Shown in pieces: positions 18,108 to 52,272 of a DNA stretch of 64,000 bases; positions within the stretch are counted from its first letter, which is position 1, and each line of letters starts with the position of its first letter. The stretch covers positions 64,001 through 128,000 of the IMG/VR virus record IMGVR_UViG_3300025810_000004; one strand, given 5' to 3'. This DNA comes from a virus. The notes beneath the pieces were generated by a model that had not been told where the DNA came from, did not search any database, and saw nothing but the letters and a program-made list of their open reading frames with translations. A program made the position numbers and the translations under genes.

Positions 18108-19670
18108 ATGGCTGGGAAAAAGGCCAAAGCAGACGTTGTTCCGGTTCGTCAGCAGAACCAGTACAACTGTATGACCACGAGCCTCTGCATGGCTCTCCGT
18201 GCCCTTGGTGTGCCCGAAGAGGAGTGCTCTATCCAGCAGGTGAACAAGGTCGTTGGGGCTATGCCCCTCCGAGGCGCGGCTTGGGAGCCCCTGCTTGCAG
18301 CGGCAAACCATTATGGGATGCGAGCCATCTTGACTTTGCCCTCTACGGTTCGGCAGCTGAAGAAGTGGACCGACGCTGGCAGTCCCATAGTCATCGCCTG
18401 GAACCCCGAGGGCCGCGAGTGGAGCCACGCTTCTCTGGTGTTTGACGTCACCGAAGACGACGAGCACGGGTTCTTGGTTCACGTCGCTGACCCGAATATA
18501 CCGGACCCCGATGAAACCGTGCGGGTTGTACCGAAGGGCGAGTTCTACCAGAAGTGGTACGAAAAGTCACCTCAGGGTTTCTTGATCCGTAGACCAGCTT
18601 GCGCAATAGAGCGGGAGATCACTCCCGAAGGGAGACAAGTCATGGCAAGCATGAAGAAATCAGCGGCGCGTCGTGGCCCCCCGTCTCAGGTAGGATCTTC
18701 TGCCCTCCTGAAGCGGCAGGGCTACACCCCCGTCGATGTCATGTTCGGCGAGGCGCTGCCACACCGTCGCCCCATCGTCTCCAAGGGCGATGGGATCATG
18801 GACCGGCGCGGCGACGTGTATCTGTTTGCAGGCATCGCAGGCGACGGCTCACCGATCCTGGCGAAGGATGAACGGGAACTGGAACGGCTCTCGAAGAAGG
18901 TCATCGAAGACCGCTTGCACGTGGTCACCGCAGCAGGCAAAGATTACACCGTTGAGATGCGGGGGGAAGCTGACAACTTCCGTTCTGCTACCTCTGCCAA
19001 GAGGGTCCTCGCACGTTGGGCTCGTACCAGCAAGACCGCCGCTGAATTGAAGGACATCTGGGTCGTCACCGAGCCCGGTGAGGACGACGAAATTGTGGGG
19101 ATAGTGTCCCAGATTTCTGACCCCCGGACGCTTGGGGACCTGATACGGGGCATGGGCAGGAGGTGGGATACCGACCTCCCGGCTCTCCACGACTCTCAGG
19201 ATTCCGCTGAGAAGGACGCCATGCGCCGACTTGAAAAGGTTCACAAGGGTGACGTGCCCGATTGGGTTCTGCAGGACAAGGGTGACTACAAACTGGCTTC
19301 GGTCAGGCGTCTGATCCAGGCTTACACCAAGCAGTCCAACCGCTTCCAGAAGAGGATGGACAGAAAGCTGAAGTCCCTCATAAACCACAGCTTTGAGCGT
19401 ATAGGGCTGGACGGGAACACCAGATTCAACACCCCACAGCAGGGTTATTCTCGTGCTGTGGACCTCATGGGTGAGTACGGTGTGGAGCTGGCGGAGGTGC
19501 CTAATTCGTTCGACTTCAAGCACCGACCGACTGGGACAGTGCGGGTTGACGTGGCCTTCACCAACCAAGAGGACATTTTCTCCCCGTACGAGATCACCAA
19601 CTCCATGCTGGTTATCCAGTACACGGAACTGCGTGAAGATGTTTTCGAGGTCATAGCTTATATGTCTTGA
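18108..19670 (+). CDS. multidomain protein with N-terminal C39-like cysteine peptidase
   Basis: RQQNQYNCMTTSLCMAL (Q/C), WSHASLV (H), VADPN (D); further domains separated by KSAA/KTAA. Confidence 0.8.
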   Translation: MAGKKAKADVVPVRQQNQYNCMTTSLCMALRALGVPEEECSIQQVNKVVGAMPLRGAAWEPLLAAANHYGMRAILTLPSTVRQLKKWTDAGSPIVIAWNPEGREWSHASLVFDVTEDDEHGFLVHVADPNIPDPDETVRVVPKGEFYQKWYEKSPQGFLIRRPACAIEREITPEGRQVMASMKKSAARRGPPSQVGSSALLKRQGYTPVDVMFGEALPHRRPIVSKGDGIMDRRGDVYLFAGIAGDGSPILAKDERELERLSKKVIEDRLHVVTAAGKDYTVEMRGEADNFRSATSAKRVLARWARTSKTAAELKDIWVVTEPGEDDEIVGIVSQISDPRTLGDLIRGMGRRWDTDLPALHDSQDSAEKDAMRRLEKVHKGDVPDWVLQDKGDYKLASVRRLIQAYTKQSNRFQKRMDRKLKSLINHSFERIGLDGNTRFNTPQQGYSRAVDLMGEYGVELAEVPNSFDFKHRPTGTVRVDVAFTNQEDIFSPYEITNSMLVIQYTELREDVFEVIAYMS

Positions 19671-19679
19671 GGAGCGGTT

Positions 19680-22481
19680 GTGAGTTCGATCAAGAGGATA
19701 GTGGCTCGCTTCTTGGAAGCAGACCTGAACCCCCCACTCGGGTATCCAGGTGGCTCTTGCTATTTCCAAGAGAGGGTTCGGGAGGAAGTCGGAAGCGACA
19801 AGCTGGTGAACCAGATAATGCTGAAGCACCTTCAGAACAAGAAGCTCACTCCCGTCGAAGAGAAGTCCATATACGACGATATGTACTGGGAGGGGAAGGT
19901 CAAAGGCACTTTCTTCGAACTCTTCTTGACTGCTCACGCCCAGTACCGCATGGACCTGCGCGGAGTCACAGTCAGTGACGTAAAGAACTCCCTGAGAGAA
20001 TTCCAGAAGGAGTGGTCCAAAGCACAGAGTCGGGGTGGTCCCAACTATTACACCAACCTCCTCCTGAACAGGGACGTGAGGTGGAAGTCCACCAACCCAC
20101 GGTTTGAGATGTTCTTCACTGTCCTTAAGTTCGTTCCCAAGGACAAGGAACGCGGTCAGAAGATGGAGGTGAGGATTCGTGTCGACTCGGTGTTCTTCTC
20201 TGGGGGTGTGCCGGAGGACCCCGTTCTTCCCAAGAATTGTGATACCTGGAAGAATTGGGAAGGGTGGTCCGGGGAGTACGAAGAGCACGGTCTGGACCGA
20301 ATCCTCCCGGTTCTCCCGAATCGCAGGAACGCAGACTTGAACCCCCCACTCGGATATCCGGGAGGCTCTTGCCACACCATTCAGCGGGTGCACGAAGAGG
20401 TCAGGAACCCAAATCTTAGGGATAACCTGGTAGACAAACTGGAAGAGGGGAAAAGCCTCTCCAATTCAGAAGCTCGCAAGGTCTACAAGGCCCCCCAGGT
20501 TGAAAGCGGAACCCAGTCCAAGCTGCTGAAAGACATCGTCATAACCTCCCACGCCCAGTACCGCATGGACCAGAGGGGTATAACCGCTGTCGAGATACGT
20601 CTGGCACTGAAGCAATTCGTCAAGGCTTTCTACGACGGGAAGTCCCAGAAGTCGGTCGAGTTCATGGACTGGTCCACGGCCATGGCTTACGGCGAGCCTA
20701 TCAGGTGGGTTGCCAAGGTCCCCAAGGGTTTGACTGTAATGTTCCAGATTTCTTCTGGGACCGCCACCGTAGTGACCGTGTACTGGGAGAAGGAACAGGA
20801 CCCCCGCCCTCAGTCTGAAGAGAGCTGTGGCTTCCCTTCAGCGGGTCGCGTGGCTCGCAAGTACGCCATGCGTATAACCCCCACCCCCGGTGTCCAAACC
20901 TTCGTCACCGAGAAGTCCCAAGAGGGGCTCCCAACGAGTGTTGACCATGAAAAGCAGGTGGTCCTCCCTCCAGGCTCTGCGACTCCGGGAGGCGAAGGAA
21001 GGAACATCGGCCCTTTTTCCTATAATGGCCCCGACTCTGAGTCGGACATCTCACCTCGTACCCTTGGTACTCCGGGTGAGGAGCGGGGCCATCCCACGAA
21101 TTTCGTAACTCCTGGCACTATGTCCCGCCGCACCATGACCTCCTCCAGAGCCACCATATTCTGGGAAGAAGAATACGAAGATTTGGAGGGAGACCCCTGG
21201 GAAGTAGCAGAGTCTGCTGGCATAAACATACTCAGGGGCAAGGAGTTCAGGGCTGGGTTCCAAGTTGACGGGGAAATAGTCGCGGTTCTGTTCGACGAGT
21301 CAGACAGAGACGGGTACTCATTCGACATAGCCGTTAGCCCTAACCACAGGAGACAGGGATTCGCCAAGAGGCTGCTGGACATAGCTCTTGACCTTTATGA
21401 GGACAACAGAGAAGCCTACGGCGAAGAGTACACTCTGAACCTTGACGTGGTTAGCCCAATCATGGAAAAGGTGCTGAAGGGAAAAGGCTTCGTGGAAGTC
21501 GGAAGGCAGGGTGGTCACACCATGATGACCAGGGTGGCCTCCTCCTCGATTCCGAATGCCAGGACTCTGCAGCAGGAATTGGTGGACCTGAAATCTTATA
21601 CCGACCACTTTGAAAGGGACTCGGACGGATACCCACTGTGGTACTTCGTTTCTCAGGGAAGTCTGACTTCCACCCCTGACTATGGTGTTTCCAACGCGGC
21701 CCTGCCCCGTGGTGCCGAGGGCAACGAGATAATGAAGACCGAAGAGGAGGTCGAGGGCACGGGGAAAACAGCCTACAAGCGCAGGTGGAAGCCTGGTCAG
21801 AGGCAGCGCAAGTCCAGGGGTAGGACCAAGACCAAGCGCAAAGAGTACAACCGCAAGAACAGGGCAAAGCGCAGACGGTACTCTCAAAAGTGGCGGGACA
21901 AGAACAAGAATAAGGGGGCGTTTCGGTCCAGTGAGAAGAAGAGGAGAAGGTCCAACCGCAGAAGGAGAGGGTCTGTCCTCACCGTTCCGGACATAGCCTT
22001 CCTTATCGGCCCCGAAATGCTGATGGGGTATATACACTCTATTTCTCCCATCAGTGGCATGGTGACCATAGAGCTGGAGGGTTCCAACGTTTCTCAGCTC
22101 GATTCGCTCCCGGTCGAGGTGTTCCTGCGAATGGCGGTATTCCTGACCGAGCAAGACATAAACTCGTTCTTCGAGTTGGTCGACGTCGAGATAGGCCCAC
22201 AAGCCTACGAGGATATGGACGAAAGCATGGTCAAGGACTGTGCTCGCAGATACGACCGTGACCCGGACTCCGACGATTTCAAGAACGATTGTTTCGAACT
22301 CACCGACGAGTACGAGCTTTCTTCCATGGGTGCAGACCAGCTCGAAGCGGTCACCACCAGCATAGTGCAAGGCAACATAGACGACGGCTTCTCCCGGTCC
22401 GTAGAAGACGCAGACGACCCAGAAATTGGCGACGAGTACGACCCCCACCTCTTTTATGGCGAGGTGGAAGTTGACCGATAG
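19680..22481 (+). CDS. polyprotein-like: two HAxxRM (DUF4258/BECR-like) domains, GNAT domain, Arg/Lys-rich tract
   Basis: ADLNPPLGYPGGSC x2; HAQYRMD.RG.T x2; FDIAVSPNHRRQGFAKRLL. Confidence 0.75.
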   Translation: MSSIKRIVARFLEADLNPPLGYPGGSCYFQERVREEVGSDKLVNQIMLKHLQNKKLTPVEEKSIYDDMYWEGKVKGTFFELFLTAHAQYRMDLRGVTVSDVKNSLREFQKEWSKAQSRGGPNYYTNLLLNRDVRWKSTNPRFEMFFTVLKFVPKDKERGQKMEVRIRVDSVFFSGGVPEDPVLPKNCDTWKNWEGWSGEYEEHGLDRILPVLPNRRNADLNPPLGYPGGSCHTIQRVHEEVRNPNLRDNLVDKLEEGKSLSNSEARKVYKAPQVESGTQSKLLKDIVITSHAQYRMDQRGITAVEIRLALKQFVKAFYDGKSQKSVEFMDWSTAMAYGEPIRWVAKVPKGLTVMFQISSGTATVVTVYWEKEQDPRPQSEESCGFPSAGRVARKYAMRITPTPGVQTFVTEKSQEGLPTSVDHEKQVVLPPGSATPGGEGRNIGPFSYNGPDSESDISPRTLGTPGEERGHPTNFVTPGTMSRRTMTSSRATIFWEEEYEDLEGDPWEVAESAGINILRGKEFRAGFQVDGEIVAVLFDESDRDGYSFDIAVSPNHRRQGFAKRLLDIALDLYEDNREAYGEEYTLNLDVVSPIMEKVLKGKGFVEVGRQGGHTMMTRVASSSIPNARTLQQELVDLKSYTDHFERDSDGYPLWYFVSQGSLTSTPDYGVSNAALPRGAEGNEIMKTEEEVEGTGKTAYKRRWKPGQRQRKSRGRTKTKRKEYNRKNRAKRRRYSQKWRDKNKNKGAFRSSEKKRRRSNRRRRGSVLTVPDIAFLIGPEMLMGYIHSISPISGMVTIELEGSNVSQLDSLPVEVFLRMAVFLTEQDINSFFELVDVEIGPQAYEDMDESMVKDCARRYDRDPDSDDFKNDCFELTDEYELSSMGADQLEAVTTSIVQGNIDDGFSRSVEDADDPEIGDEYDPHLFYGEVEVDR

Positions 22482-23835
22482 TTTGAGGACTCTCAGGTCC
22501 TACATAGGAGACTTGCACTCCCTTTTCGAGTCCGAGGACTACGACGTTCTCATTGAAAAGGCAGAATCTTCCAAAGAGGTGTCACGCCTTTCTCGTATGA
22601 TAGGAGACGTTGACGAGTACCTGACGGGCAACAGGCGTCCGTCTGATTCCAGGTACAACAGAGACGCTTCTGAACTTCTGGAGGGGGGCCGACCTGTGGT
22701 ACATCTGTCTGACGGTGGATACTCTCGTCTCACTCTCTCCATGGACAGGAAACCCCACATGTGGATAGACAAGGGTATCTCCACCAAAAGAGTGGTGGAA
22801 AAGTGGGAAAGTTCCAAGTCTGCTGGGGACATAATCCTGTACGACCAGGAAAACCCCTCAAACAACGAGATAAAGCAACCGGGTCCGGACGTTGGATACA
22901 GAGCTGAGGGCCCGACGACCTACGCCATTTCTCCGGACGAGAAGGAGGGGGTTCCTGCAGGAGGGGGAGTTGGCTTTGGTCTGTATGAAGACGCCCCACC
23001 CGCAAGCTCCAGAGTCATCCCCCAGCAGATGAAGCAGAATCTGGAGGAAAACTACTCCAAGTTCAGCGCTCGCAGGAGAAAGCCCACGAGGTTCAACAAG
23101 AACCTCGTCCTCAACGTCATATACGACCAGTCCAGGGACCCAGAGGGTATAGAGTGGGGGTCAGCCCACGTAATTTCTCCCCACGGGGAAACTGACTGGC
23201 TGGTTTCCTACCGCACCTACACCGGGAAGACGAGGAAGGTCATAGTCGGGGGGCACGAAACCGGACCGGGCAGGGTGTACCTGTCCATCCGACCCTACAA
23301 TTCCAGGCAAGCCGCCCTCATATCCGAGGTTATGGCTAATTGTGGTCCGGAGATTGTGGAGAGGTCCAAAGGTATCTCCTTCAGAAGGACCCGGATCATA
23401 CCCGCCAAGCAGATTCTCACCTACGAGGTGACCGGATCCACGGGGGACAAGTACAAGGTCTATCTGAAGGGCGTGAAGAAGGGGAACGTGAAGGCCATAG
23501 CCAAGATGCCCATAAGGGTGTCTTGTACCTGCAACTTCTTCCGCTGGTCTGGGCCAGAGCATTGGGCCAAGTCGAACGGGTTCCTGTATGGACGCCCGGT
23601 TGGAACTGCCTCTAAGCCAGTGGTAAGAGACCCCAAGGGCAAACATTGGGTTTGTAAGCACGTCTACGCTATTCTTGACGCCAAGAAAAACCTGAAATTC
23701 GCAAACTGGAACCCCGGTGCCGCCTCTGGAACTCCGGTACCAATGTCCAGAGAAGAAGTTCTGGAGCTGGTGACGCCGGAAATAATGCCGGACATCGTAA
23801 CCCGCGTGGCGACCCGATACCTCCTGAAGGGCTGA
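22426..23835 (+). CDS. multidomain protein with SWIM-type zinc finger
   Basis: VSCTCNFF...VCKHV; ends IVTRVATRYLLKG; start uncertain (22456 or 22471). Confidence 0.7.
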   Translation: MATSTTPTSFMARWKLTDSLRTLRSYIGDLHSLFESEDYDVLIEKAESSKEVSRLSRMIGDVDEYLTGNRRPSDSRYNRDASELLEGGRPVVHLSDGGYSRLTLSMDRKPHMWIDKGISTKRVVEKWESSKSAGDIILYDQENPSNNEIKQPGPDVGYRAEGPTTYAISPDEKEGVPAGGGVGFGLYEDAPPASSRVIPQQMKQNLEENYSKFSARRRKPTRFNKNLVLNVIYDQSRDPEGIEWGSAHVISPHGETDWLVSYRTYTGKTRKVIVGGHETGPGRVYLSIRPYNSRQAALISEVMANCGPEIVERSKGISFRRTRIIPAKQILTYEVTGSTGDKYKVYLKGVKKGNVKAIAKMPIRVSCTCNFFRWSGPEHWAKSNGFLYGRPVGTASKPVVRDPKGKHWVCKHVYAILDAKKNLKFANWNPGAASGTPVPMSREEVLELVTPEIMPDIVTRVATRYLLKG

Positions 23836-23838
23836 ACT

Positions 23839-27387: not shown

Positions 27388-27438
27388 ACTTCTTCCCGAC
27401 TATAGTTCATCTAATGAGGGCTTTGGGTACCATTCCTC

Positions 27439-27864: not shown

Positions 27865-27872
27865 GTGAAAGT

Positions 27873-28064: not shown

Positions 28065-28150
28065 GCCATGGTTATCCCCTTGGTATACCAGCTCGCAATC
28101 GTGATCTTGATATGCCTTTTCATCCTTTGGATGATGGGAAAGGACAAGCC

Positions 28151-28476: not shown

Positions 28477-29805
28477 ATGAGCACCGAAGCATACGACTAC
28501 CTGTACGCCACCTACATCTGGATCGACGGCGGCTCCCCTACCCAGACCCTCCGGTCGAAGACCCGCGTGATCATCGACGTGGTGCAAGGCCGGATGCTGG
28601 GGTCCGCGACCGCGAACGCGAACTGGGTTCTGGACCTGGGCGGCGAGTGGGACTGGTCCTTCGACGGGAGCAGCACCATGCAGGCGGACGGGGACTCCTC
28701 CGACTGCGTGCTCAAGCCCATCCGGTTCTTCCGTGACCCCCTTCGCCCCCGGACCCCGTGTCCCGAGACGGGAGAGCCCCGCCATCACCTGCTGGTGCTC
28801 TGCGAGGTCTTCGGTGCCGATGGCGAGCCACACCCGTCCAACTACCGGGCTCGCCTCCGTGACGTGGAGCACGCCATCGAGGAGGAGGCCGAAGACCCGA
28901 CCGGGTGTTGGTTCGGCTACGAGCAGGAGTACACGCTGTTCAAGGGCTCCCGTCCGCTGGGCTTCGGTGAGGATCGGAGGTTCCCCGCAGCGCAGGGTCC
29001 CTACTACTGCGGCGTGGGGGCCGACGAGGTGAAGGGGCGTGATCTGGTCGAGGAGCACATGGAGATGTGCGCCCGTGCGGGCATCCACCTGACCGGAATC
29101 AACGCCGAGGTCATGCCCGGCCAGTGGGAGTTCCAAGTCGGTGGTCCTGGTGCTTATGGGACGCTGGCGGGGGATCATCTGTGGATGGCCCGCTGGCTCC
29201 TGTACCGCTTGGGCGAGAAGTACGGCATCCACGCCACGCTCGATCCCAAGCCCGTCCCCGGTGACTGGAACGGAGCCGGGATGCACACCAACTTCTCGAC
29301 CCCCGCGATGCGCGAGAATCCCGTCTCTGATGACGGCAGCGAATCCGACAGCAGCAAGGGCATCCACGCCATCCACGCGTGGTGCCGAGAAGCCCGGTTC
29401 CGAGTCAGTGACCACCTGTCCGAGTACGGGGACGGCATCGAGATGCGCCTCACCGGGAAGCATGAGACGTGCTCCTACCGTGAGTTCAAGTGGGGGGTCA
29501 GCGACCGCACCGCTTCGATTCGCATTCCCATCGCCACCGCGAAGGCGGGCAAGGGGTACCTGGAGGACCGCAGGCCGAACGCGAACGCCTGCCCCTACCG
29601 GGTGGCCGTCGCCATGCTCAAGACCGCCTACGGGCTCTGGGGGCTCTCCCACGAGCGTCCTGAACCTCTGGAGGACAACCCGTTCGGAGACACCTACGAG
29701 GTGGTCTACACCGAGTACGGCGGAGGGTCGATCGGAAACGTGAGCGACCAGTTGTGGCTGTTCAACCTCAACGACTACACGATCACCACGGAAGGTGACA
29801 AGTGA
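28477..29805 (+). CDS. glnII: glutamine synthetase type II
   Basis: YIWIDG, LRSKTR, WSFDGSST.QA, EQEY, QGPYYCGVG, GINAEVMPGQWEFQVG, PKP..GDWNGAGMHTNFST, RLTGKHET, GYLEDRRP. Confidence 0.95.
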   Translation: MSTEAYDYLYATYIWIDGGSPTQTLRSKTRVIIDVVQGRMLGSATANANWVLDLGGEWDWSFDGSSTMQADGDSSDCVLKPIRFFRDPLRPRTPCPETGEPRHHLLVLCEVFGADGEPHPSNYRARLRDVEHAIEEEAEDPTGCWFGYEQEYTLFKGSRPLGFGEDRRFPAAQGPYYCGVGADEVKGRDLVEEHMEMCARAGIHLTGINAEVMPGQWEFQVGGPGAYGTLAGDHLWMARWLLYRLGEKYGIHATLDPKPVPGDWNGAGMHTNFSTPAMRENPVSDDGSESDSSKGIHAIHAWCREARFRVSDHLSEYGDGIEMRLTGKHETCSYREFKWGVSDRTASIRIPIATAKAGKGYLEDRRPNANACPYRVAVAMLKTAYGLWGLSHERPEPLEDNPFGDTYEVVYTEYGGGSIGNVSDQLWLFNLNDYTITTEGDK

Positions 29806-37351: not shown

Positions 37352-38164
37352 ATGAACAACGACGACTTCTGGACGAACTTCGCTACGGGCCACACCAACA
37401 CGGTGCTGGCTGGGTCGATGGACTCCCACTTGTCGGGCAAGAGTCTTGACGATTCGTTCGGCTCCGTTCGCAATCTCAAGACTGCTGCACGACCCATCCG
37501 GCTTCCCACACGCGAGATCAAGACCCTCGCCAAGAGGTTGGCACAGCGGCTCTACCAGTACGGACTGCCGAAGCCCGGTCGAGTGACGGCGCAGGAGTAC
37601 CTGCCCCTCACCAACGTCATGGGTGATGAGGTGGTGGTCGAGATCCTGTTGACGGGCACGCCGGGTCGGAACCGCGACCCGTTCAGCAACGAACTGCTCA
37701 ACGGCGGCTTCCTCAAGCGTCGTCCCGAAGGTCCGGTGATGCGGGTGTTCGTGAACCCGCACCTCGACCCCCGGTCGTTTGAGATGCGTCCTCGCAAGAT
37801 TGTCGAGGACGAGTTGTACCGTCTTCTCGCCCACGAGTTGACCCATGCGGCAGATGTCTGGTCAGGCAAGGGGTCGGTGGGTGACCTGTCGGGGTCGATG
37901 GATGATCTCAAGAAGCATCACCACAACCATCCGGCAGAGGTTCGGTCGCTGATGCGGGACGTGGTGACGCACCTCGATGACGGGGACACCGTGCGTGAGT
38001 TCATGGGCTACGGCATGGACTTCAACACGGCGCTCCGCGAAGCTCTGAAGGACACCAAGTGGCCGGACATCGAGCCGTACCTGAACCCGAAGAACAAGAA
38101 GACCCTCTTGAAGGGGATCTACACCTTCCTTCAAGATCAAGGTCTGGACGAGGCGGGGAGGTAG
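37352..38164 (+). CDS. HExxH zinc metallopeptidase-like protein with N-terminal extension ending KTAA
   Basis: LAHELTHAAD...HPAEVRS. Confidence 0.7.
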   Translation: MNNDDFWTNFATGHTNTVLAGSMDSHLSGKSLDDSFGSVRNLKTAARPIRLPTREIKTLAKRLAQRLYQYGLPKPGRVTAQEYLPLTNVMGDEVVVEILLTGTPGRNRDPFSNELLNGGFLKRRPEGPVMRVFVNPHLDPRSFEMRPRKIVEDELYRLLAHELTHAADVWSGKGSVGDLSGSMDDLKKHHHNHPAEVRSLMRDVVTHLDDGDTVREFMGYGMDFNTALREALKDTKWPDIEPYLNPKNKKTLLKGIYTFLQDQGLDEAGR

Positions 38165-42304: not shown

Positions 42305-42604
42305 TTGGACAAAAAGGCGCGAGAGATAGAGAACCTCAACTCCCGGATAAAAGAACTGGCTCGTACGGCTTCTTCCAATCTGGAGGAAGCTCTGCGTATT
42401 GTCCGAAATTCCCCGGCTTCCAGGTTGGAAAAGAGGATAGCCCAGAGAAGGCTGGCAGAGGCTCTCGATGCGCTCCAGGGAGTGAAGGGCATAGTGACCA
42501 CACCCGAAAGGGAGACACACGAGGAGTGGAAGGAGAGGCGTGAAGAGCGAAAGAAGAGACGTTCTGAGCGGCTCAAAGGCATGAAGGAGCAGGCTGATGT
42601 CTGA
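42305..42604 (+). CDS. hypothetical protein
   Basis: Charged helical ORF overlapping the portal start. Confidence 0.55.
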   Translation: MDKKAREIENLNSRIKELARTASSNLEEALRIVRNSPASRLEKRIAQRRLAEALDALQGVKGIVTTPERETHEEWKERREERKKRRSERLKGMKEQADV

Positions 42605-44303
42605 CAACAACGAGGGCAAGTCCGTCAAGAAGGTCAGAAACGGCGACGGCAAGAAGAAGGCCAAGACCGGGAAGCCCCGCAAAGTCACCGCTTCCATGAT
42701 GCGAACCAGGACCGCCTCGTACGGTGGTATGAGCGCCGGGAACGGCGGGTCAGTAGAGGGGGCGGGGGGCAACTTCTACTCCCCGGAACTCAGCACGGAC
42801 TTTCTGGAGCTTCCTCAGTCTCTCCACGAGCAGTGGAATTACTACAGGTTCTTCTACAACTCCGAGCCGTTCGTCGGTCAGGCTGTGGACCTCCACACGG
42901 AGTTGCCAATCAGCAAGGTCCGGATCGGTATGGCCCACGCCAAGAACCGGGACATAGCTGTTGCCGCAACCAAGTTCTGTGAGAGGTGGGCGAAGAATAT
43001 CAAGCTCCTCGACAGGCTGATCTCCATCACACACGACCGGAACCTCATAGGTGAGGTCAACATATGGTGTGAAGACGCCAACCCGGATATGCCCAGGGAC
43101 ATACGCCAGCAGCTCCAGCGCACTCTGCTCGAATCCGGAGAAGCGGAAGAAAAGTGGGTGGACAGAGAGGACGCCGACGAGAGGGCCGTTGCTTGGCTCA
43201 AGAAGAACTACAAGGGGTGGACCAGCATCCGGGTTCTTCCTCCAGAGCAGGTCAAGATGGAGTCGTTCAACTTCACGGACGAACGCATATTCGAGCTTAT
43301 CCCCGACTCCAAGACTCGGGACATCATAGACAAATACCAGCAGGGGGACCCCAACGCGAAGCGTATCGTGGAGTCCATGCCACCTGAGGTGGTCAAAGCC
43401 GTCGTTGAGGGCGGGAACATCCCGCTCAACACGGACCCGATGGCTGGGTCTTTCATCTACTATCTGGCAAACAAGAAGTCAGACTATGAGCCCCGTGGCC
43501 GTTCCATCCTTGAGAGGTGTATGAGGGCGCTCGTATACCGGGACAAGCTGCGTCAGGCACAGACCAGCATCGCCTCCCGCCACATGACCCCGATCCGTGT
43601 CGTGTTCGGTGAGGATATGGACGTGGCAGACGTGGAGGCTCTGCGAGAGCAGGTGGACAACGCGCTGCAGGACCCGGATTACAGCATCATCGCGAACTTC
43701 CAGATCAACTGGGAGGAAATGGGTGCAGACCAGAGACTGTTGGACCTGAGTGGTGAATACGACCTCACCGACCGGCAGTTGTACTCTGGTCTGGGAGTCA
43801 CAGAAGGGTTGCTGTCTGGGGAGTCCAGCTATTCGGGCGACCGGATCAATCTGGAAGTTATCAACACTCGGTATATGCTCCTCCGGGAGCAGCTTCAGGA
43901 CTTGGTGGAGACCCAGTTCTTCAAGCCCATGTGCGCACGTATGGGCTTCGTAGAGGAGGACGACGACGGTGAAGAATACGTCGTCGTACCGACCCTGTCG
44001 TTCACCCGGCTTGCACTCCGTGACAATCGAGACACCTTCGACGCTCTATACAATCTGTATACAAAGGGTTCACTGGATGTGGACACCATTCTGGAGCTTC
44101 TCAACCTCGACCCCATAGCTGTCAGAGAGAGAATCGAGCGTGACCTGTTCACGGTCAATGACCCGACCTTCAACGAGGTTCTGCGAGGAGTCTACGGAGA
44201 TACTGGCCGAGCGATTGCGGAGAACTCGAACGCAGCCGAGAAGATCGCGGAAGTGCTGGGGCTGAAGATGAACCCACCGGAAGAAGATGGCGGCAGATAC
44301 TAA
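42597..44303 (+). CDS. portal protein
   Basis: 568 aa after terL; RFFY..EPFVGQAVDLHTELP, VLPPEQV, YEPRGRSIL.R, L..GLGV..GLLSGE. Confidence 0.8.
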   Translation: MSDNNEGKSVKKVRNGDGKKKAKTGKPRKVTASMMRTRTASYGGMSAGNGGSVEGAGGNFYSPELSTDFLELPQSLHEQWNYYRFFYNSEPFVGQAVDLHTELPISKVRIGMAHAKNRDIAVAATKFCERWAKNIKLLDRLISITHDRNLIGEVNIWCEDANPDMPRDIRQQLQRTLLESGEAEEKWVDREDADERAVAWLKKNYKGWTSIRVLPPEQVKMESFNFTDERIFELIPDSKTRDIIDKYQQGDPNAKRIVESMPPEVVKAVVEGGNIPLNTDPMAGSFIYYLANKKSDYEPRGRSILERCMRALVYRDKLRQAQTSIASRHMTPIRVVFGEDMDVADVEALREQVDNALQDPDYSIIANFQINWEEMGADQRLLDLSGEYDLTDRQLYSGLGVTEGLLSGESSYSGDRINLEVINTRYMLLREQLQDLVETQFFKPMCARMGFVEEDDDGEEYVVVPTLSFTRLALRDNRDTFDALYNLYTKGSLDVDTILELLNLDPIAVRERIERDLFTVNDPTFNEVLRGVYGDTGRAIAENSNAAEKIAEVLGLKMNPPEEDGGRY

Positions 44304-44520: not shown

Positions 44521-44567
44521 TTTCCCTCCCCCTGTCGGTATTATACGGCTTCCACTCAGGAGAAAAA

Positions 44568-45029: not shown

Positions 45030-45035
45030 GCCCCC

Positions 45036-45716
45036 ATGGCATTCGACACGAAGTACAGGCCCAAGACCTACAAAGAGGTCTTGGGTCAGGACACCACTGT
45101 GTCCATACTCAAGAAATACGTTTCAGAAGGCAAGGGGTTCCACCAATCTTATGTCTTCTGCGGCCAGCACGGTTCGGGCAAGACCACTCTTGCCCGAATT
45201 CTGGCCCGTGCCCTTCTGTGTCACCAGCCCGTAGAAGGTGCTCCCTGTGACGAGTGCAACTCCTGCCTGTCCTTGCTGAATGGACAGGGGCATGAGTGCT
45301 TCGAAGAACTGGACGCCGCCACGAAGTCTGGGAAGGACGACCTCGCTCGGATTATCGAGGACGCCAACTACAGCACGTTGAGCGGTTCCCGGCGCGTCTA
45401 CGTTATAGACGAGTGTTTCACTGAGGACACCGTTCTACTGACCCGTGACGGGTTCCGGTCCATTCGAGACATAGTGGATTCCAAATTCGTTGGGGAGGTT
45501 CTGTCTTTCGATCCTGACACCGGTAGGGAAATTTGGAAGCCCATAACGGATTGGTTTGACCTCGGTGAACGCGAGGTCATTACTCTGGAATTCGATAACG
45601 GGGTCGAGATCACTGTCACCCTCGGTCAGGAGCTTTACACCTCCAACCGTGGCTGGGTGAAAGTAGAAGATCTGACAGACCAGGACGACGTGGTGGAATC
45701 TTCGTGGGGTCAATAA
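45036..45716 (+). CDS. dnaX: DNA polymerase III gamma/tau N-extein + N-intein
   Basis: KYRPKTY..V.GQ, GQHGSGKTT, PCDECNSC, ELDAA, VYVIDE then CFTEDT...HINT blocks, stop TAA. Confidence 0.92.
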   Translation: MAFDTKYRPKTYKEVLGQDTTVSILKKYVSEGKGFHQSYVFCGQHGSGKTTLARILARALLCHQPVEGAPCDECNSCLSLLNGQGHECFEELDAATKSGKDDLARIIEDANYSTLSGSRRVYVIDECFTEDTVLLTRDGFRSIRDIVDSKFVGEVLSFDPDTGREIWKPITDWFDLGEREVITLEFDNGVEITVTLGQELYTSNRGWVKVEDLTDQDDVVESSWGQ

Positions 45717-45720
45717 GTCT

Positions 45721-46020
45721 TTAGCTCTTGCTTATTGGTTCATGGATGACGGATCAATTGGTAGGAGGACCAAAAGTGGTGCACTGTTGAGTGCCTGTAT
45801 ACACACTTGTGGATTCGGGATTCCAGAGAACGAATTATTGGTAACATTCCTGAAAGAGAGATTCGGGTTGGAACCGATTTTAGCATTTTCCAAAGGTTAT
45901 CCTTACCTAAGGTTCAATGTAAAAAGCGCGCGAGCATTGGGGGAAATAATTACCCCATATTTGCACCCTTCTATGGCTTACAAAGGAAACTGCTTTGGCT
46001 CGACTGACGAACAAATCTGA
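45721..46020 (+). pseudogene. LAGLIDADG homing-endonuclease remnant (single domain)
   Basis: LALAYWFMDDGS...GF...E..LL..L.ERFGL...I.PYLHPSMAYK; AT-richer; out of frame with both intein halves. Confidence 0.8.
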
Positions 46021-47122
46021 ACCTTTTCGCGCTCCAGTATATGATGTGACCGTGGAGGGGACACATTCTTTTTTTGCTGGTTCAGGCCCCACCCCCAACA
46101 GAGGTGTGCTGGTCCACAACTGCCACCGACTCTCCAAGAACGCACTGGACGTCCTGCTCAAGCCCATGGAGGACAATGTTCCTGGGTCTGAGAACAAGAG
46201 GCTCGTCATTCTGTTCTGCACCACGGAACCAGACAAGATGGTCGGGACCGTGTTCTCCAGATGCGCACCTGCTTTCACCATCAGACCCACATCGTTTGAG
46301 GAGATCTCGGATAGGTTGGCCTCCATCTGTGTGCTGGAGGGTATCAAATACGAGCCGACTGCCCTTCTGACCTTGGCTGAGATCAGCAAGAGTCACATCC
46401 GCGATGCCTTGAAGACCCTGGAGGGGGTCTCGGTCGTCAGCAACAGGGTCGTGGACGACAAGGCAGTCAGCTCGTATTTCAAATTCGATACCAACGAAGT
46501 CATCCTGAGTCTGTTGAAGGAGATACTCCTGGACAACAAACCAGAATGCTTCGAGTTGGCCGAGTCCGTGTCCCGTGACCTTGGCCCAAAGGTTTCGTAC
46601 GAGAGGCTTTCGGAAGCCTCGATGCTGGCCTATAGGTCGAGTCTGGGAATTCCGCCGAAGCGGACGTCTTGGGATCTCCAGAAACTCAGGGAGATCGGCG
46701 TGAACCACCAACAGGCTCTGTTGGAGGTCGCCAAGCACTTCGCCGCACCTCCAAACAGGTCTTCTGGTTCTTCCTTTGTATTGGACTGCGTGGGTTTCAC
46801 CCCCCACGTCAATACTGCCCCGACACCTCGAAGAGACACCAGCGAAAATAAGGGAGAAAAGGGGGAAGACAAGACCCCCGAAAAACTGGTAGACTACGAG
46901 AAGAGCAAGCAGGTGTCCCACCCTTCTGTTAATTCAGGTGGGGTGTATATCGAGCCCAAAGCAGTCAAGAAAATCGAAGATGGGGCAGGCGGGTATGATA
47001 CCCTGACTGTTCCGGTCGTCAAGACTAAGTCTTTAGACAGAGCTACGTTTATTAAGCTGCTGCAGGTGCACCTCGGAGGGGTCAACATAAATGCCAAAAG
47101 GGGAGTCTTGGATAGTTCTTGA
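45995..47122 (+). CDS. dnaX: C-intein + DnaX C-extein
   Basis: VYDVTVEGTHSFFA...LVHN then CHRLSKNALDVLLKPMED, ILFCTTE, SRC, HIRDAL; AAGGA upstream of TTG. Confidence 0.9.
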   Translation: MARLTNKSEPFRAPVYDVTVEGTHSFFAGSGPTPNRGVLVHNCHRLSKNALDVLLKPMEDNVPGSENKRLVILFCTTEPDKMVGTVFSRCAPAFTIRPTSFEEISDRLASICVLEGIKYEPTALLTLAEISKSHIRDALKTLEGVSVVSNRVVDDKAVSSYFKFDTNEVILSLLKEILLDNKPECFELAESVSRDLGPKVSYERLSEASMLAYRSSLGIPPKRTSWDLQKLREIGVNHQQALLEVAKHFAAPPNRSSGSSFVLDCVGFTPHVNTAPTPRRDTSENKGEKGEDKTPEKLVDYEKSKQVSHPSVNSGGVYIEPKAVKKIEDGAGGYDTLTVPVVKTKSLDRATFIKLLQVHLGGVNINAKRGVLDSS

Positions 47123-48222: not shown

Positions 48223-48267
48223 CGTTTGGTCTTTTATACGGACTGTCCGGTATAGGATAAACGAGGT

Positions 48268-48576
48268 ATGTCCGAAACCAAAACCACTTTTATGGCCAAG
48301 AAGTTAGCGAGTCGCTGGCTCGCTGAGAACATGGTCCCTGAGTACAAAATGGTTGTCTATATGCACGGGGGAGGCAGTCATATAAACCTCCCTTCGATCA
48401 TAAGGACTGCCAGAAAACGTCAGTTCAAGTGGGCTCAGGACAAGTATCCTGACCTGAGGCTGAAGGTTGGGTTCGACTTTGTGTCCGTCAGGTCCAAAGA
48501 CCCCCGAGCCATAAAAGACCTCAAAGCCTACTTCACCAAGCTGGGGTTTGAAACATTCGGGATGGAAGGGGAATGA
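48268..48576 (+). CDS. hypothetical protein (N-terminal KKLASRWL)
   Basis: GAGG RBS, promoter motif 48223-48237. Confidence 0.65.
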   Translation: MSETKTTFMAKKLASRWLAENMVPEYKMVVYMHGGGSHINLPSIIRTARKRQFKWAQDKYPDLRLKVGFDFVSVRSKDPRAIKDLKAYFTKLGFETFGMEGE

Positions 48577-49001
48577 CCGCCTCTCTCATACAGTCCGAGT
48601 TCGTGTACAGGTCTGGGGTTTCCCCCAATCTGTACACGTTCACCATATCCTCCAACTCAACTGGTGTCATATCGGTCAGGGACATACAGGACCCCTACGG
48701 TTTTGTCATTTCCCCGTACACCCAGATACCCCAGTCTGTGACGGCGGACATCAGCTCCGCTATGTCGCAAGTGGAGACCATCTTGTCACTCACCTCAGCC
48801 GTCAACGGCACCCTCACCTTCACCGCTGAAACCGAAAAGACCGTGACCTTCGCGGAAGCCTTTTCTGACACCTCTTACAGGGTGCAGGTCACTTCGGACG
48901 TTTTCGCTCCTTTCCGAATCACCAACAAGACCGTGCTTGGATTCACGGTCCAAGCCGGGTCGACCATAACGGGCAGCGTCGGATACGACGTGTTTGTTTG
49001 A
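48573..49001 (+). CDS. putative structural protein
   Basis: C-terminal F..AFSDTSYRV..ITNKTVLGFTV module like that of the 35777 protein. Confidence 0.65.
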   Translation: MTASLIQSEFVYRSGVSPNLYTFTISSNSTGVISVRDIQDPYGFVISPYTQIPQSVTADISSAMSQVETILSLTSAVNGTLTFTAETEKTVTFAEAFSDTSYRVQVTSDVFAPFRITNKTVLGFTVQAGSTITGSVGYDVFV

Positions 49002-49051
49002 GTCGATAACTCTCCTATAACTGTTATTATTCCGAACACGGAGATCCGAAA

Positions 49052-51067
49052 ATGCTACTCCCCATCGAAACCCACAAGTCGGCTTCTGACACCATTGGCT
49101 CGGGCGACAACACTTATATAGCCCGTTACAAGCGACAGCAGGTCGTGGTGATGGCTGACACCTCGTACGAGGCACAGCAGATTGCAGCCAAGCACTTCCG
49201 GGCTCGCAAGCCCTACGAAGTGAGTGTCATGCTCGCGGAGAAGGGCGGCAAGCAGGTCACCCACATGCCCCTCATGGCTTCTGAGCAGGAGGCCGAGAAG
49301 TTGGAGGCCGAGGCCGAAGCCAACGAGGCACAGGCTGATGCTGACCGCCAGAAGGCCGACGCCGCTCGCATGAAGGAAGGCTGGGCTGAGGGTGCACAGG
49401 GCCGCAAGGACTGGCAGGCTTGGTTCGACCAGCAGTCTCAGGAGTTCCAGGACAAGTGGAACGAGATGAACGAGCAGTATGGGGAAGTGGTCAAGGACCA
49501 GTACAAGACCGCTGCTGGTGGTCTTTACGGCTACACCAAGGGCACCCAGCGCGACGTGGAAGCCACGATCCGCAAGTCCACCAAATATGCCACCAAGCTC
49601 GCAAAGGGCATCTACGCCAAGGACGAGCGCAGCGTGGACTTCCTGAAGACCCACGCGAAGCGCGGCAGCAAGACCGCCAAGTTGCTCCTGGTTGCTATGT
49701 CCAGTGTCGGTCCCCGAGTGGCTTCCGAAAAGTCTGCAAATGTCTTTGAGCTTCCCATAGAGAACAAGACCGCCGCGAAGCGCAAGAGCCCCTCCAACGG
49801 CATGTACGGGTTCCCTTCCAAGGTCGCTCGTCTTTCTCTCACGGCTTGCTCGGACCTGAAGTCCTACATCGGTGAGATCACCTACGATCTCCACAGCCGT
49901 CGCGCAGCGAAGCACGAGCGCATCACCGGGTTCCTCAAGGAGCACAGCAAGACCGCCAAGTGCGGTTATTCCCGCATGATTCTGTCCTGCTACCCGGACG
50001 CCCCCAAAGTCGCCAAGCAGAAGCTCCCCAAGGAACTGGAAGAGCACCAGTTCACCTCCAAGGACGGGGACAACCCTCCCCCTGCAGACGCCGACGGCGA
50101 CGGCAAGACCAACGAGCCGAAGCCCGAGGGTCTCAAAAACAAAAAGTCTTCCATGAAGAAGAAGATTGACCGCCACATGTACGTGATCCACAAGGCGGGT
50201 GACCGCTACGTGGTCACCCTGGGCGACCCGAGGAAGCCCGGTGTGGATATTAAATTCCAGTCACCGCATATGAGCGATGTAACGGAGTACCTGGAAGACA
50301 AGGGTATCAGCAACGACCACGTATTTGATACGACTCGTAAATTCGGTATCCCCGATACCTACAGCGAGTTCTACATAAGTATGAACCGTCTTGCATCCCG
50401 AGGTGGCCACCACTATACCTCCCCCGACGGGACCGTGCTCGTGGATACCGCTTTCCTGAATTCCCTCGGCGGAATACGGGGGGTCTCCCTGCAGCACATG
50501 GGATTCGGTGAGTTTTTTGCCGACACCCCAAAGGGCCGGGTTGACTTCATAAGGGGAGGGGCGGATTTCCCCGGAAAGTCTGGCCGTTCCCACAAGGTCA
50601 GGGGCCCAGGTGCAGAGTGGCTCGTGGCCGAGATGACCTCCAAGGGCAAGTCTGAGGAAATGTCCTCCCACAAGAGCGCAGCTGAGGAGACGCTGAAGAA
50701 GGCGTTCGTCCCCGACTCGGTGGACGGCTGGCTGGAGTGGGCGGAAGGTTCCCGTACCGCTGCCCCCATTGACGACTTGTTTGAGATGCGTGATGTCCGG
50801 TATCCACCAGAGGTGGGTTTCATCGTTGACCTGTTGGTCAATCTGGGATTCGGGAAGGGTTACGGCTCTCCCGATGCAATCCTTCGGTGGGTGGAGGCTG
50901 GCAAGTCTGTCCCCGAAACCATCGCAGACATCACGAAGCATTGGCGTAAGCAGTTCAAGAGCACCAACCCGAAGGTGCAGGCTGCGTTTCTGAAAGCGAT
51001 GGCGTCTATTGAGGACAACGCGGCTCCCGCGAAGGAGTACCCGCCGCCTCGCCGACGCCGTGCCTGA
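49052..51067 (+). CDS. polyprotein-like multidomain protein
   Basis: Internal repeats LPIETHKSA/LPIENKTA, GLYGY/GMYGF, FLKTHAKRGSKTA/FLKEHSKTA; many K/R-x-A/S junctions. Confidence 0.8.
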   Translation: MLLPIETHKSASDTIGSGDNTYIARYKRQQVVVMADTSYEAQQIAAKHFRARKPYEVSVMLAEKGGKQVTHMPLMASEQEAEKLEAEAEANEAQADADRQKADAARMKEGWAEGAQGRKDWQAWFDQQSQEFQDKWNEMNEQYGEVVKDQYKTAAGGLYGYTKGTQRDVEATIRKSTKYATKLAKGIYAKDERSVDFLKTHAKRGSKTAKLLLVAMSSVGPRVASEKSANVFELPIENKTAAKRKSPSNGMYGFPSKVARLSLTACSDLKSYIGEITYDLHSRRAAKHERITGFLKEHSKTAKCGYSRMILSCYPDAPKVAKQKLPKELEEHQFTSKDGDNPPPADADGDGKTNEPKPEGLKNKKSSMKKKIDRHMYVIHKAGDRYVVTLGDPRKPGVDIKFQSPHMSDVTEYLEDKGISNDHVFDTTRKFGIPDTYSEFYISMNRLASRGGHHYTSPDGTVLVDTAFLNSLGGIRGVSLQHMGFGEFFADTPKGRVDFIRGGADFPGKSGRSHKVRGPGAEWLVAEMTSKGKSEEMSSHKSAAEETLKKAFVPDSVDGWLEWAEGSRTAAPIDDLFEMRDVRYPPEVGFIVDLLVNLGFGKGYGSPDAILRWVEAGKSVPETIADITKHWRKQFKSTNPKVQAAFLKAMASIEDNAAPAKEYPPPRRRRA

Positions 51068-51156
51068 CAGGAGGGTGAGAAGCGGTCGCTTCCACACTCC
51101 CATCCCCACCCCGAAGACATTGACGAATGGAACCCGGTCATAGAGGACGATGAGAA

Positions 51157-52272
51157 ATGAGCCAGCACCAGCGCGACAAGCAGGCGTACTTGAACGCCAC
51201 CCCGATGCAGCGTGAGGTCGTGCGTCGGCTCCTGTGCGATGTGCTGGCGTGCCTCCGAGCACAGGCACTCTCATACCAGACGAGCCACTGGCAGGTCGTC
51301 GGGCAGTCCTTCTACGGCAACCACCTCCTGTTCGCCCGCCTCTACGAGTCGGTGAAGGAACAGGTAGACGGACTCGCCGAGAAGATCGTAGGCTACCTGG
51401 GTAGGGACGCCGTTGACCTCACCTACCAGATGGAAGACATCCGGGACTTCACCTCGGCCTGGTCTCAGATAGGGTGTCACCACCGGAGGGGATTGCAGTC
51501 CGAAACTGACCTCCAGGCCACCCTGAAATTGGCATATAACGCCATAACTTCCACCGGGCTTATGACTCTTGGGTTGGATGACTGGATCATGGCGACTGCC
51601 AACGCCCATGAGGAGAACGAGTACCTGCTCCAGCAGGCATTGACTCCGGTTCCGGGGCAGAAGCAGGCGTCCAAGCAGGCCAGCACCAACACCGAGCGGT
51701 ACTTCTACAAGGCCACGGACGGCAAGTGGTACGTCGAGAACGAGGAGTACGAGGAGGACTGGGGCACAGGCGAGCAGATCGAAGGTGAGATGACCCATTA
51801 TGGGCCGTTCCCATCGTTTGATGCCGCCGAGAAGTACATGCGCCGCAATTTCGCCAACTCCGGTTCCTACTCCGATGACCATTCCGGTCGCATGAAGCCC
51901 CCGCGCAACCCGGTGAAGCCCGGTCGTGGACGTAGGCTCTGGGGATCTGACGCCCCTTCCGAGGAGCACCGCTTCTTCGACAACCCGGAGAAGCGTGAGG
52001 TGCGGGAGTTCGCTCAGGCAGGTGCCATCAGCAACAGCCCCGAGATCGCCGCCGAAGCCTCCGAAGAAGACCAGCTGGACGTTTCCGAGGCCAAGGCCGT
52101 AGCGGAAGCCGAAGCGGCCCCTCCCACCCCCGAAGAGATCAAGGAAGAGCCGGGTGGAAAGACCCTGAGCACCCTGAATAGGCTGGTGGTGGAGTCCGAA
52201 GACCCCGACGCGGCAAAGGCTGCTGAAGACAACAAAGCAAGAATGGCGGCATGGCTCCGCGAACTCGGTTGA
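51157..52272 (+). CDS. Dps/ferritin-like domain fused to additional domains
   Basis: YQTSHWQVVGQSFYGNHLLFARLYE...VDGLAEKI...HEENEYLL; then KQASKQAS linker. Confidence 0.85.
   Translation: MSQHQRDKQAYLNATPMQREVVRRLLCDVLACLRAQALSYQTSHWQVVGQSFYGNHLLFARLYESVKEQVDGLAEKIVGYLGRDAVDLTYQMEDIRDFTSAWSQIGCHHRRGLQSETDLQATLKLAYNAITSTGLMTLGLDDWIMATANAHEENEYLLQQALTPVPGQKQASKQASTNTERYFYKATDGKWYVENEEYEEDWGTGEQIEGEMTHYGPFPSFDAAEKYMRRNFANSGSYSDDHSGRMKPPRNPVKPGRGRRLWGSDAPSEEHRFFDNPEKREVREFAQAGAISNSPEIAAEASEEDQLDVSEAKAVAEAEAAPPTPEEIKEEPGGKTLSTLNRLVVESEDPDAAKAAEDNKARMAAWLRELG

Follow-up and report, generated by a model that had tools for sequence, protein, structure and literature searches.

A junction motif in mosaic and head-associated proteins of an uncultured huge phage and its candidate role as a head protease site

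A 64,000-nucleotide stretch of phage DNA (the window) carries several genes whose products are chains of unrelated domains joined at a short motif, [KR]-x-A-(S/A/G). The window spans bases 64001-128000 of a single 158,946-bp IMG/VR contig (IMGVR_UViG_3300025810_000004; CheckV completeness estimate, 36%). Judged from comparisons with homologs, the motif is genuine and conserved, and it marks junctions within flexible linkers of mosaic and head-associated proteins. Positions are counted from the first base of the window, and genes are named by their start. All motif sites and mosaic genes described below lie on the plus strand.

Mosaic genes and their junctions

The contig belongs to an uncultured huge phage related to LR745208.1 (a 485-kb uncultured phage), Tunturiibacter phage Tunturi_5, and Bacillus phage G. 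Its portal protein (42597-44303; PHROG portal family) is 67%, 36%, and 29% identical to theirs, respectively. The large terminase gene lies at 39760-41670. A megablast search with 22 kb of the window against GenBank phages gave no match, and PHROG scans of 30 further proteins gave nearly no structural annotation.

Gene 49052 (49052-51067) encodes a mosaic protein of 671 residues, which we analyzed through 92 mosaic homologs, their homology breakpoints, and an AlphaFold model (mean predicted local distance difference test score, or pLDDT, of 70.8). Its N-terminal part comprises an LPIE leader, a small domain, a coiled coil, and two copies of a helical domain of ~85 residues. The C-terminal part comprises a beta-rich domain, a conserved MLKKAFVPDSVDGWLEW-x-G-x-RTAA module, an added domain of 100 residues, and a basic tail. 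Sharp steps in BLAST coverage by 91 of the homologs occur at residues 9, 75/76, 152, 229, 234, 541/542, and 570/571. These positions match, in that order, HKSAS, LMAS, YKTAA, EKSA|N, LPIE, KSAA, and RTAA. Within the family, 30% of homology breakpoints fall within three residues of a motif, compared with 9% for random positions, and the peaks lie at the motif Lys/Arg and directly past the fourth residue.

The individual junctions of 49052 are found mostly in low-confidence segments of the model. The N-terminal leader, LPIE-TH-KSAS (residues 3-12; 49058-49087), runs into a segment with pLDDT below 50 (residues 7-28). LMAS (residues 74-77; 49271-49282) precedes the coiled-coil module; 29 homology matches start at 75/76, and pLDDT is below 50 over residues 71-77. 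At this place, ahead of SEQ(E/Q)AEKLEAE, the homologs show RLA|S, RFA|S, KIA|S, or RAA|S. KTAA (residues 152-155; 49505-49516) opens the first helical repeat, in a pLDDT dip between helices where six homology matches start at 152. The two helical repeats are separated by an internal copy of the leader, made up of KSAN (227-230), LPIE (234-237), and KTAA (239-242), at 49730-49777; here, 21 homology matches end at 229, seven start at 234, and pLDDT is below 50 over residues 222-244. Further on, a conserved WLEW module of ~30 residues is bracketed by KSAA (541-544; 50672-50683; 14 homology starts at 541/542; pLDDT below 50 over 540-552) and RTAA (568-571; 50753-50764; 40 homology ends at 570/571; pLDDT below 50 over 565-583). 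Most homologs end within four to six basic residues after RTAA; 49052 instead carries the inserted domain of 100 residues. In total, six sites fall in segments with pLDDT below 50, and KTAA-152 falls in the dip. Two S-K-T-A-K copies, which add to the enrichment count of 49052 and are absent from the list in the preliminary description of the window, are inside helices with pLDDT above 90. A Foldseek search with the 49052 model found no fold match in the PDB.

Gene 18108 (18108-19670; 520 residues) begins with a C39-like peptidase domain of the papain fold (residues 9-181; Pfam Peptidase_C39_2). Behind it come a linker, then a beta domain (195-272), a helical region of low confidence, and finally a C-terminal domain (413-520). 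Foldseek matched the N-terminal domain to the peptidase domains of ComA, PCAT1, and PeiR (E about 1e-6). H107 and D128 show no variation among homologs, and C21 shows almost none. The domain is conserved at no less than 80% identity across >100 proteins and is always N-terminal, with a junction directly after it. It ends with GRQVMAS, then [RQ]KK[TS]A[SGA], and in relatives is followed by unrelated cargo. Homology coverage of 18108 shifts at residues 181-189, 309, and 393-397, and the number of covering homologs falls from 120 to 47 across residues 181-190. The motif is present in 51% of 86 distinct sequence windows at this junction, compared with 8% of random windows. In 18108 itself the junction behind the peptidase domain is KSAA (184-187; 18657-18668), in a segment with pLDDT below 50 (181-194). 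Next come RVLARWA (299-305) and KTAA (309-312), together at 19002-19043, in the low-confidence region 273-358; three homology matches start at 309. KLAS (395-398; 19290-19301) precedes the C-terminal domain, with homology starts at 393-397, pLDDT of about 50, and the fold beginning near residue 413. All three sites thus lie in or beside low-confidence segments of the AlphaFold model (mean pLDDT 77.7). In the complete genome of LR745208.1, a C39-like domain is encoded directly upstream of a 49052-type helical-repeat module (473328-474955, minus strand), and the homologs P0063, P0066, and P0072 combine the two within one protein.

Gene 19680 (19680-22481; 933 residues) was compared with Pfam and with 83 mosaic homologs. 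It contains two DUF4258-like modules, one unknown module, a GNAT module, a Lys/Arg-rich module, and an acidic C-terminal domain, and its homologs swap in ART-PolyVal, ChaC, nucleotidyltransferase, and 2H phosphoesterase modules. Coverage breakpoints are located at residues 13/14, 216-218, 383-394, 487-493, 687-706, and 765. RVAS (618-621; 21531-21542) follows the GNAT module, and high-scoring segment pairs (HSPs) end at query residues 620-624; homologs close this module with H[VI][LI]M[TK][RK]xA[SY] and then stop or diverge. KTAY (696-699; 21765-21776) marks the conserved start of the Lys/Arg-rich module (GKTAYKRRW here). In nearly all homologs, this module begins with an acidic run and then K[TEQSV]AY[KR][RQ][RK]W. 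TRVAS and GKTAY, both proposed in the preliminary description, are conserved junction elements among the homologs. A third proposal, RRNAD, lies at a real boundary, but its Ala belongs to the conserved ADLNPP start of the following domain. An extremely Lys/Arg-rich stretch of ~65 residues (residues 700-767; 21777-21980), with an acidic domain directly after it, is the sole module common to 82 of 82 homologs. It may be the core of a DNA-binding internal head protein that bears variable fused enzymes.

The downstream gene, 22426, has a junction that the preliminary description had not listed: KSAG (residues 131-134; 22816-22827), ahead of the DIILYDQENPSNNE module. In homologs, this module is fused to the C-terminus of a 19680-type protein via K-T-A-G or R-V-A-G. 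Genes 19680 and 22426 overlap by 56 nt in the window (22426-22481), the second gene being read in the +1 frame; relatives have the 22426-type module joined in frame to the 19680-type C-terminus.

Two further genes show the same arrangement. In gene 37352, KTAA (residues 43-46; 37478-37489) separates a conserved N-terminal module of 42 residues from a zincin domain with an HExxH motif (HELTH; 37832-37846). Homology breaks at 42/43. Across the relatives, similarity is confined to roughly the first 42-53 residues. The homologs in loci L014 and L016 match over only some 47-53 N-terminal residues and diverge near KTAA, and the alignment to L015 extends further at low identity. The homologs carry RLA[SG]-x-K[TQ]AS junctions further downstream. 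In gene 51157, KQASKQAS (residues 169-176; 51661-51684) follows a Dps/ferritin-like domain supported by PHROG and Pfam Dps-like matches. At the same position, homologs have GRVAS, SKTAF, SRKAF, SRVAS, or KRQAS and then diverge.

The preliminary description had proposed that these motifs mark domain boundaries and had suggested checking whether the sites fall in low-pLDDT linkers. We find that the first holds for most sites, as homology breakpoints in 49052, 18108, 37352, and 51157 and as conserved junctions in 19680. Most sites in the models of 49052 and 18108 do fall in such linkers. The modules shuffled in these mosaic families include GNAT, DUF4258, ART-PolyVal, ChaC, Zeta toxin, ferritin, and zincin domains. 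Codons differ between motif sites, which indicates that selection acts on the peptide. For the same reason, we rejected nucleotide microhomology as the origin of the junction motif.

Motif statistics and the head genes of related phages

The fourth residue of the motif is needed to exceed chance. All peptides quoted in the preliminary description were found in the genes to which it assigned them, and the enrichment that it suggested testing for is seen with the four-residue form and not with the three-residue one. Among the 146 proteins encoded by the contig, [KR]-x-[AS] was observed 785 times against 803 expected, and [KR][ST]A 63 times against 58. The three-residue definition is thus too loose. 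[KR]xA[AS] was observed 85 times, compared with 64.0 +/- 7.5 in shuffled sequences. The form derived from protein families, [KR][TVLFQMS]A[SAG], was observed 66 times against 36.9 +/- 6.0, which exceeds all 300 shuffles (maximum 52). The four-residue form [KR]-x-A-[SAG] amounts to a 1.8-fold enrichment over the contig, and 49052, 51157, and 18108 rank highest for the refined motif. Initially, 49052 alone stood out, with eight copies against 1.3 expected, partly as a result of its internal duplication of ~85 residues.

Position preferences were derived from the families and are numbered relative to a presumed cut after Ala. At P3, Arg is favored 4.5-fold and Lys 3.2-fold; at P2, Thr is favored 14.8-fold. 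P1 favors Ala 3.1-fold and every other residue at most 1.3-fold, and Ser or Ala is favored 8-fold at P1'. Overall, Thr, Val, Leu, or Gln is favored at position x.

The motif is also found in the portal protein. RTAS (residues 38-41; 42708-42719) lies in a basic N-terminal extension, which is followed by a Gly-rich linker and the conserved core. The extension itself is variable; M-[RK]-x-[KR]-[TVFI]-A is kept within it in 37 of 45 distinct relatives. Phage G has RKMAS at the same place, and Tunturi_5 has KTAG.

Head genes downstream of the portal could be studied in relatives. In LR745208, the gene order is portal, head protease (474 residues), scaffold-like proteins, and capsid protein (291 residues). 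The protease is 35% identical over its catalytic part to gp19 of phage G, which was named head maturation protease in the phage G paper (PMC12484599). In LR745208 and 28 related loci, the portal gene is followed 5-7 kb downstream by this protease gene. Searching 71 portal-neighbor loci gave 28 protease genes, 18 of them distinct, and these were aligned with the LR745208 protease and phage G gp19 (n = 20). PHROG assigns the family as head maturation protease (E about 1e-13). The gp19-type family matches neither Pfam S77 nor S78, and a profile search against PDB sequences was empty. The alignment contains invariant His and Ser residues.

Around the catalytic domain, in linkers that are otherwise variable and rich in gaps, the 20 proteases have as many as three short motifs in common, each at an aligned position. 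Site 1 precedes the catalytic domain (KTAA in phage G). Site 2 is directly after it, as K-[VSA]-A-x (KVAS in phage G), and is followed by an acidic run. Site 3 has the form phi-phi-K-[EQI]-[AG] (LLKIAS in phage G; LVKQASS in LR745208). Judged by placement, the pattern that flanks the catalytic domain is that of autoprocessing sites. The scaffold-like proteins next to the LR745208 protease carry KQAS, RKAS, KKAS, and KVAS. The capsid protein of the relatives, of about 291 residues, lacks a long propeptide and has a conserved KLAAS in a highly conserved N-arm.

Only one peptidase, that of the gp19 type, occurs in every relative tested. Phage G and Tunturi_5 lack C39_2. The M16 peptidase (gp2 in phage G) was rejected as a shared enzyme because LR745208, Tunturi_5, and this contig do not have it. 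On the contig, Pfam searches for S77, S78, and HK97-capsid families were empty, and tblastn and blastp searches for the LR745208 and phage G capsid, protease, scaffold, and decoration proteins gave no counterpart. A match of phage G gp19 to a 534-residue protein at contig position 134928 was rejected (E = 0.6), as that protein resembles a tail or fiber protein. The contig is ~36% complete, and the protease gene presumably lies on the missing part of this genome.

Leaders in the 49052 family are interchangeable. Sixty of 92 members start with M-x(0-7)-LPxE, and [KRFL]xA follows within six residues in 57 of these 60. Other members start with a LIRLA leader or with the C39-like domain. Internal LP[IVSFL]E copies number 136 in the family against 3.6 expected, a count that includes many related sequences. 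LPxE was rejected as a general cleavage motif, since it is confined to the 49052 family and has only two real copies on the contig.

The LIRLA leader, which is carried by seven small genes of the contig, has a counterpart in the protease. The C-terminal tail of the protease, LT..[DE].K.L[IV]RL[AS]KL[IL], is conserved and homologous to helix 1 of the leader. It is seen in loci L026-L084 (e.g., L057:13056-14465) and in LR745208.1 (399989-401413). This homology supports a docking role for the LIRLA leader, as a putative capsid-docking peptide. The preliminary description had likened its second motif to the IRLAS core of this leader. Protease tails show IRLAK, VRLSK, or IRLGR at the equivalent place, which argues that IRLAS is a docking helix rather than a cut site.

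Proposed cleavage by a head protease and its alternatives

The motif consensus recurs in the portal, the protease (up to three sites), the scaffold-like proteins, and the mosaic proteins. We consider it probable that [KR]-x-A-(S/A/G) is the cut site of the head protease of this clade, of the phage G gp19 type, which would trim leaders and separate the modules of packaged polyvalent proteins. By analogy with herpesvirus assemblin, the scissile bond is probably after Ala. The protease would trim the basic N-terminal extension of the portal. It would also remove the interchangeable leaders, namely LPIE in 49052, the 42-residue head of 37352, and the C39-like domain of 18108, and would cut the mosaic proteins 18108, 19680, 22426, 49052, and 51157 into modules. 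Candidate substrate peptides for a gp19-type protease are GRQVMASRKKTAS and HKSAS. We infer from sequence patterns that the signal is cut, that the head protease is the cutter, that cutting takes place inside the prohead, and that the pieces are injected effectors. The link of 18108, 19680, 49052, and 51157 to the head is indirect, through common leaders, including the LIRLA helix, and through proximity to the terminase and portal genes.

A maturation site of this kind was part of the preliminary description. The four-residue form is supported by comparison, through recurrence in linkers, at the flanks of the protease catalytic domain, and in distant portals, and the three-residue definition is not. 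The accompanying view of polyprotein-like genes agrees with families that shuffle modules behind interchangeable leaders; cleavage and packaging in the capsid would be a further deduction.

Comparable systems exist in other phages. T4 gp21 cuts after L/I-x-E, and phiKZ gp175, the enzyme of 201phi2-1, and SPN3US gp245 cut after S/A/G-x-E. In T4, the internal proteins IPI-III and Alt have a capsid-targeting sequence, a short N-terminal leader that ends in the protease motif and is found on unrelated cargo. The LPIE-x-KSA|S leader of the 49052 family resembles this sequence. The present system differs in having at least three interchangeable leaders (an LPxE peptide, a LIRLA helix pair of ~35 residues, and a C39-like domain of 185 residues) and in having internal copies. 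In T4, phiKZ, and SPN3US, a single short motif directs the prohead protease to many head proteins, and a protein is often cut more than once (PMC10052503). As in T4, phiKZ, 201phi2-1, and SPN3US, a single motif is found here in portal, scaffold, putative internal or ejection proteins, and protease, leaders would be removed, and packaged enzymes would be among the substrates (PMC10052503). Unlike in T4, phiKZ, and SPN3US, P1 is Ala with a basic P3 instead of Glu, the protease is of the gp19 family, and the predicted substrates comprise hundreds of mosaic architectures.

Herpesvirus assemblin has two kinds of site: a release (R) site, (V/L/I)-x-A|S, and a maturation (M) site, Y-V/L-K/Q-A|S. The cut proposed here, after Ala and before Ser or Ala, is similar, and the small P1 Ala and P1' Ser of assemblin-type sites are both among the family preferences. 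The protease gene is also organized like pUL26, with a catalytic domain, a site, an acidic linker, a helical C-terminal part, and a C-terminal docking tail. It differs in that a basic P3 is favored, and an assemblin-like fold of this protease is putative. Phage prohead proteases are described as homologous to assemblin (Cheng et al. 2004, as cited in PMC10052503).

The mosaic proteins share features with phage polyvalent proteins, which combine unrelated enzymatic and peptidase domains, two to fifteen in number, in one chain, are encoded among virion genes, and are proposed to be processed into units (PMC5512222). Signature domains of that class are the zincin MPTase, ART-PolyVal, PBECR, and LPDs. 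Here, too, unrelated domains occur in one polypeptide and are shuffled among relatives, and each homolog match covers part of the query. Domains of polyvalent type in these proteins or their homologs are ART-PolyVal, 2H phosphoesterase, nucleotidyltransferase, zincin, and RelE-like DUF4258, with ART-PolyVal in a homolog scoring 27.3 bits, under the Pfam cut-off of 31.2. A Pfam scan of the window's own proteins gave no LPD or MPTase match. For the polyvalent proteins in PMC5512222, autoproteolysis by embedded zincins was proposed with no junction motif or leader defined, whereas here there is a specific linker signal. The signal also occurs in the portal and in the head protease, which favors the latter over an embedded zincin as the cutting enzyme.

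An alternative is that the motif is bound but not cut, as a tether to the scaffold, portal, or capsid interior or as a linker for flexibility or solubility, and that the mosaic proteins stay intact. The related LIRLA helix fits such a role, being a docking-type element in accessory leaders and in the protease tail where its "AS" is not conserved. In addition, some conserved sites have a loose P1' residue (M, F, T, or Y in portals; Y in 19680), and N4-type polyvalent proteins are packaged unprocessed (PMC5512222). We nevertheless regard binding without cutting as unlikely: a strict small P1 (Ala) and a small P1' suit a protease subsite better than a binding epitope, and the motif occurs at both module ends and in tandem (VMAS then KKTAS; KSAN, LPIE, KTAA). 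It also brackets the catalytic domain of the protease, as autoprocessing sites do.

Alternatively, a peptidase within the mosaic proteins might make the cuts, possibly after injection. The candidates are the C39-like domain of 18108, which would cut itself off at its C-terminal end (GRQVMA|S), and the zincin of 37352. The C39-like domain keeps its Cys, His, and Asp, and its strong conservation (at least 80%) and constant N-terminal placement with a junction directly behind it would suit such an enzyme; autoproteolytic domain release has been proposed for polyvalent proteins (Iyer et al. 2017, PMC5512222). Yet the portals of phage G and Tunturi_5, and the phage G protease, carry the motif while neither phage has C39_2, and the 37352 zincin is an exchangeable piece of cargo, seen only here. 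Cleavage by C39 enzymes takes place behind Gly-Gly, and the junction behind the C39-like domain (VMAS-[RQ]KK[TS]A[SG]) has no Gly-Gly and hence does not have the form of a double-glycine leader. Portal, scaffold, and protease, moreover, are classic substrates of prohead proteases. Cutting by an embedded peptidase is thus rather improbable.

Chance combined with shared ancestry, in which a common tripeptide was picked out by eye, could account for the three-residue motif being at chance level, for the misread RRNAD, and for four of the eight K[ST]A copies in 49052 that come from one duplicated unit of ~85 residues (two of them buried in helices), but it is largely refuted and very improbable, as the refined motif exceeds 300 of 300 shuffles, breakpoints are enriched threefold at it, and it is conserved at equivalent linkers in unrelated families and in phages whose portals are 29-36% identical.

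Several observations, together with the loose P1' residues noted above, weigh against cleavage by the head protease. The family motif statistics use related sequences, so the counts are not independent, and refinement of the motif drew on families that include two of the window's own proteins. Protease site 1 often has Glu at P1' and may be a mere helix. The capsid protein, checked in relatives, gives no clear support, and the protease, scaffold, and capsid genes are without a copy on this contig. The published phage G proteomics used a trypsin-specific search.

The cleavage reading can be extended into a cargo grammar. An LPxE, LIRLA, or C39-like address would load chains of host-manipulating enzymes into the prohead, and an assemblin-like protease would cut after each [KR]-x-Ala, so that one gene would yield several effectors that travel with the DNA. 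We hold this wider scheme only tentatively, at somewhat less than even chances. If true, the packaged enzyme arsenal of hundreds of uncultured huge phages could become readable from sequence.

Almost no huge phage of the phage G lineage has been cultured, and orphans make up most of the genes in this group. With a dependable code of cut sites and leaders, one could tell which orphan proteins enter the capsid, what their mature ends are, and which modules are delivered to the host, including acetyltransferases, RelE-like proteins, ADP-ribosyltransferases, Zeta-type kinases, Dps-like proteins, and peptidases. Such a code would extend the one-motif principle of T4 and phiKZ to an after-Ala specificity as in herpesviruses, and it would tie this principle to polyvalent proteins, whose processing was conjecture. 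A literature search found no paper that describes the [KR]-x-A-(S/A/G) motif for the phage G lineage. The prediction is directly testable in phage G, which is cultured, has the motif in its portal and protease, and encodes gp7, a protein rich in the three-residue core. This protein (930 residues; NC_023719.1, 6287-9079) contains 11 [KR][TSVILQ]A sites against 3.7 expected and is, from its sequence, a candidate for a multiply cut head protein.

The second motif and other genes of the window

A second motif, R-V-A-x-R/K-aromatic, was described in the preliminary description as lying at termini or junctions, and we confirmed this. It is conserved in two families, those of 19680 and 48268, and the minimal docking signal proposed there is a candidate role for it. 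The strict pattern [KR][VIL][AVL]x[KR][FYW][LA], which was fitted afterwards to the six cases given there, was observed six times against 0.33 expected (maximum 3 in 300 shuffles). All six matches are those cases, each at a terminus or junction. A looser pattern was observed 12 times against 2.07 expected.

Two of the strict matches are in 19680. RIVARFL (residues 6-12; 19695-19715) is N-terminal, ahead of ADLNPPLGYPGG. In the homologs, [RK][VL]x x[RL][YFW] is directly ahead of ADLNPP, and in this family the second motif is the head of a longer element, VxxR[FY]LEA...PP..GG, which is also internal in homologs. RVARKYA (residues 390-396; 20847-20867) lies at a minor module junction, where homology ends at 383 (eight HSPs) and starts at 387-394. 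A third is the RVLARWA of 18108 described above.

The remaining matches are terminal. RVATRYL (residues 460-466; 23803-23823) lies in an added C-terminal tail of 22426, and the LR745208 homolog is without this tail. KLASRWL (residues 12-18; 48301-48321) is the N-terminal copy in gene 48268; K-x-[LV]-A-x-R-W is kept in both homologs found, in L029 and LR745208. RVAHKWA (14379-14399), located by a six-frame search, is in the C-terminal tail of gene 13626-14414 (plus strand; 262 residues). Its strong coding score identifies this gene as real, over two minus-strand open reading frames (ORFs) in 13434-14414.

Other features of the window were noted as well. A clamp-loader (dnaX-like) gene at 45036-47122 is split into two ORFs (45036-45716 and 45995-47122), which flank a small third one; its LR745208 counterpart is a single gene of 628 residues. 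A gene at 28477-29805, with a GC content of 63%, matches phrog_21628 and contains motifs like those of glutamine synthetase (RTASIRIP). This is a probable auxiliary metabolic gene, whose RTAS belongs to a catalytic-domain motif, not a junction. On the minus strand, a protein of 397 residues (7511-8704) has five tandem repeats of the YREANKE(R/K)I type followed by a GIY-YIG-like segment (YCITFANGCYYYGK), and another of 255 residues (1118-1885) has four tandem KKSTKVKK repeats.

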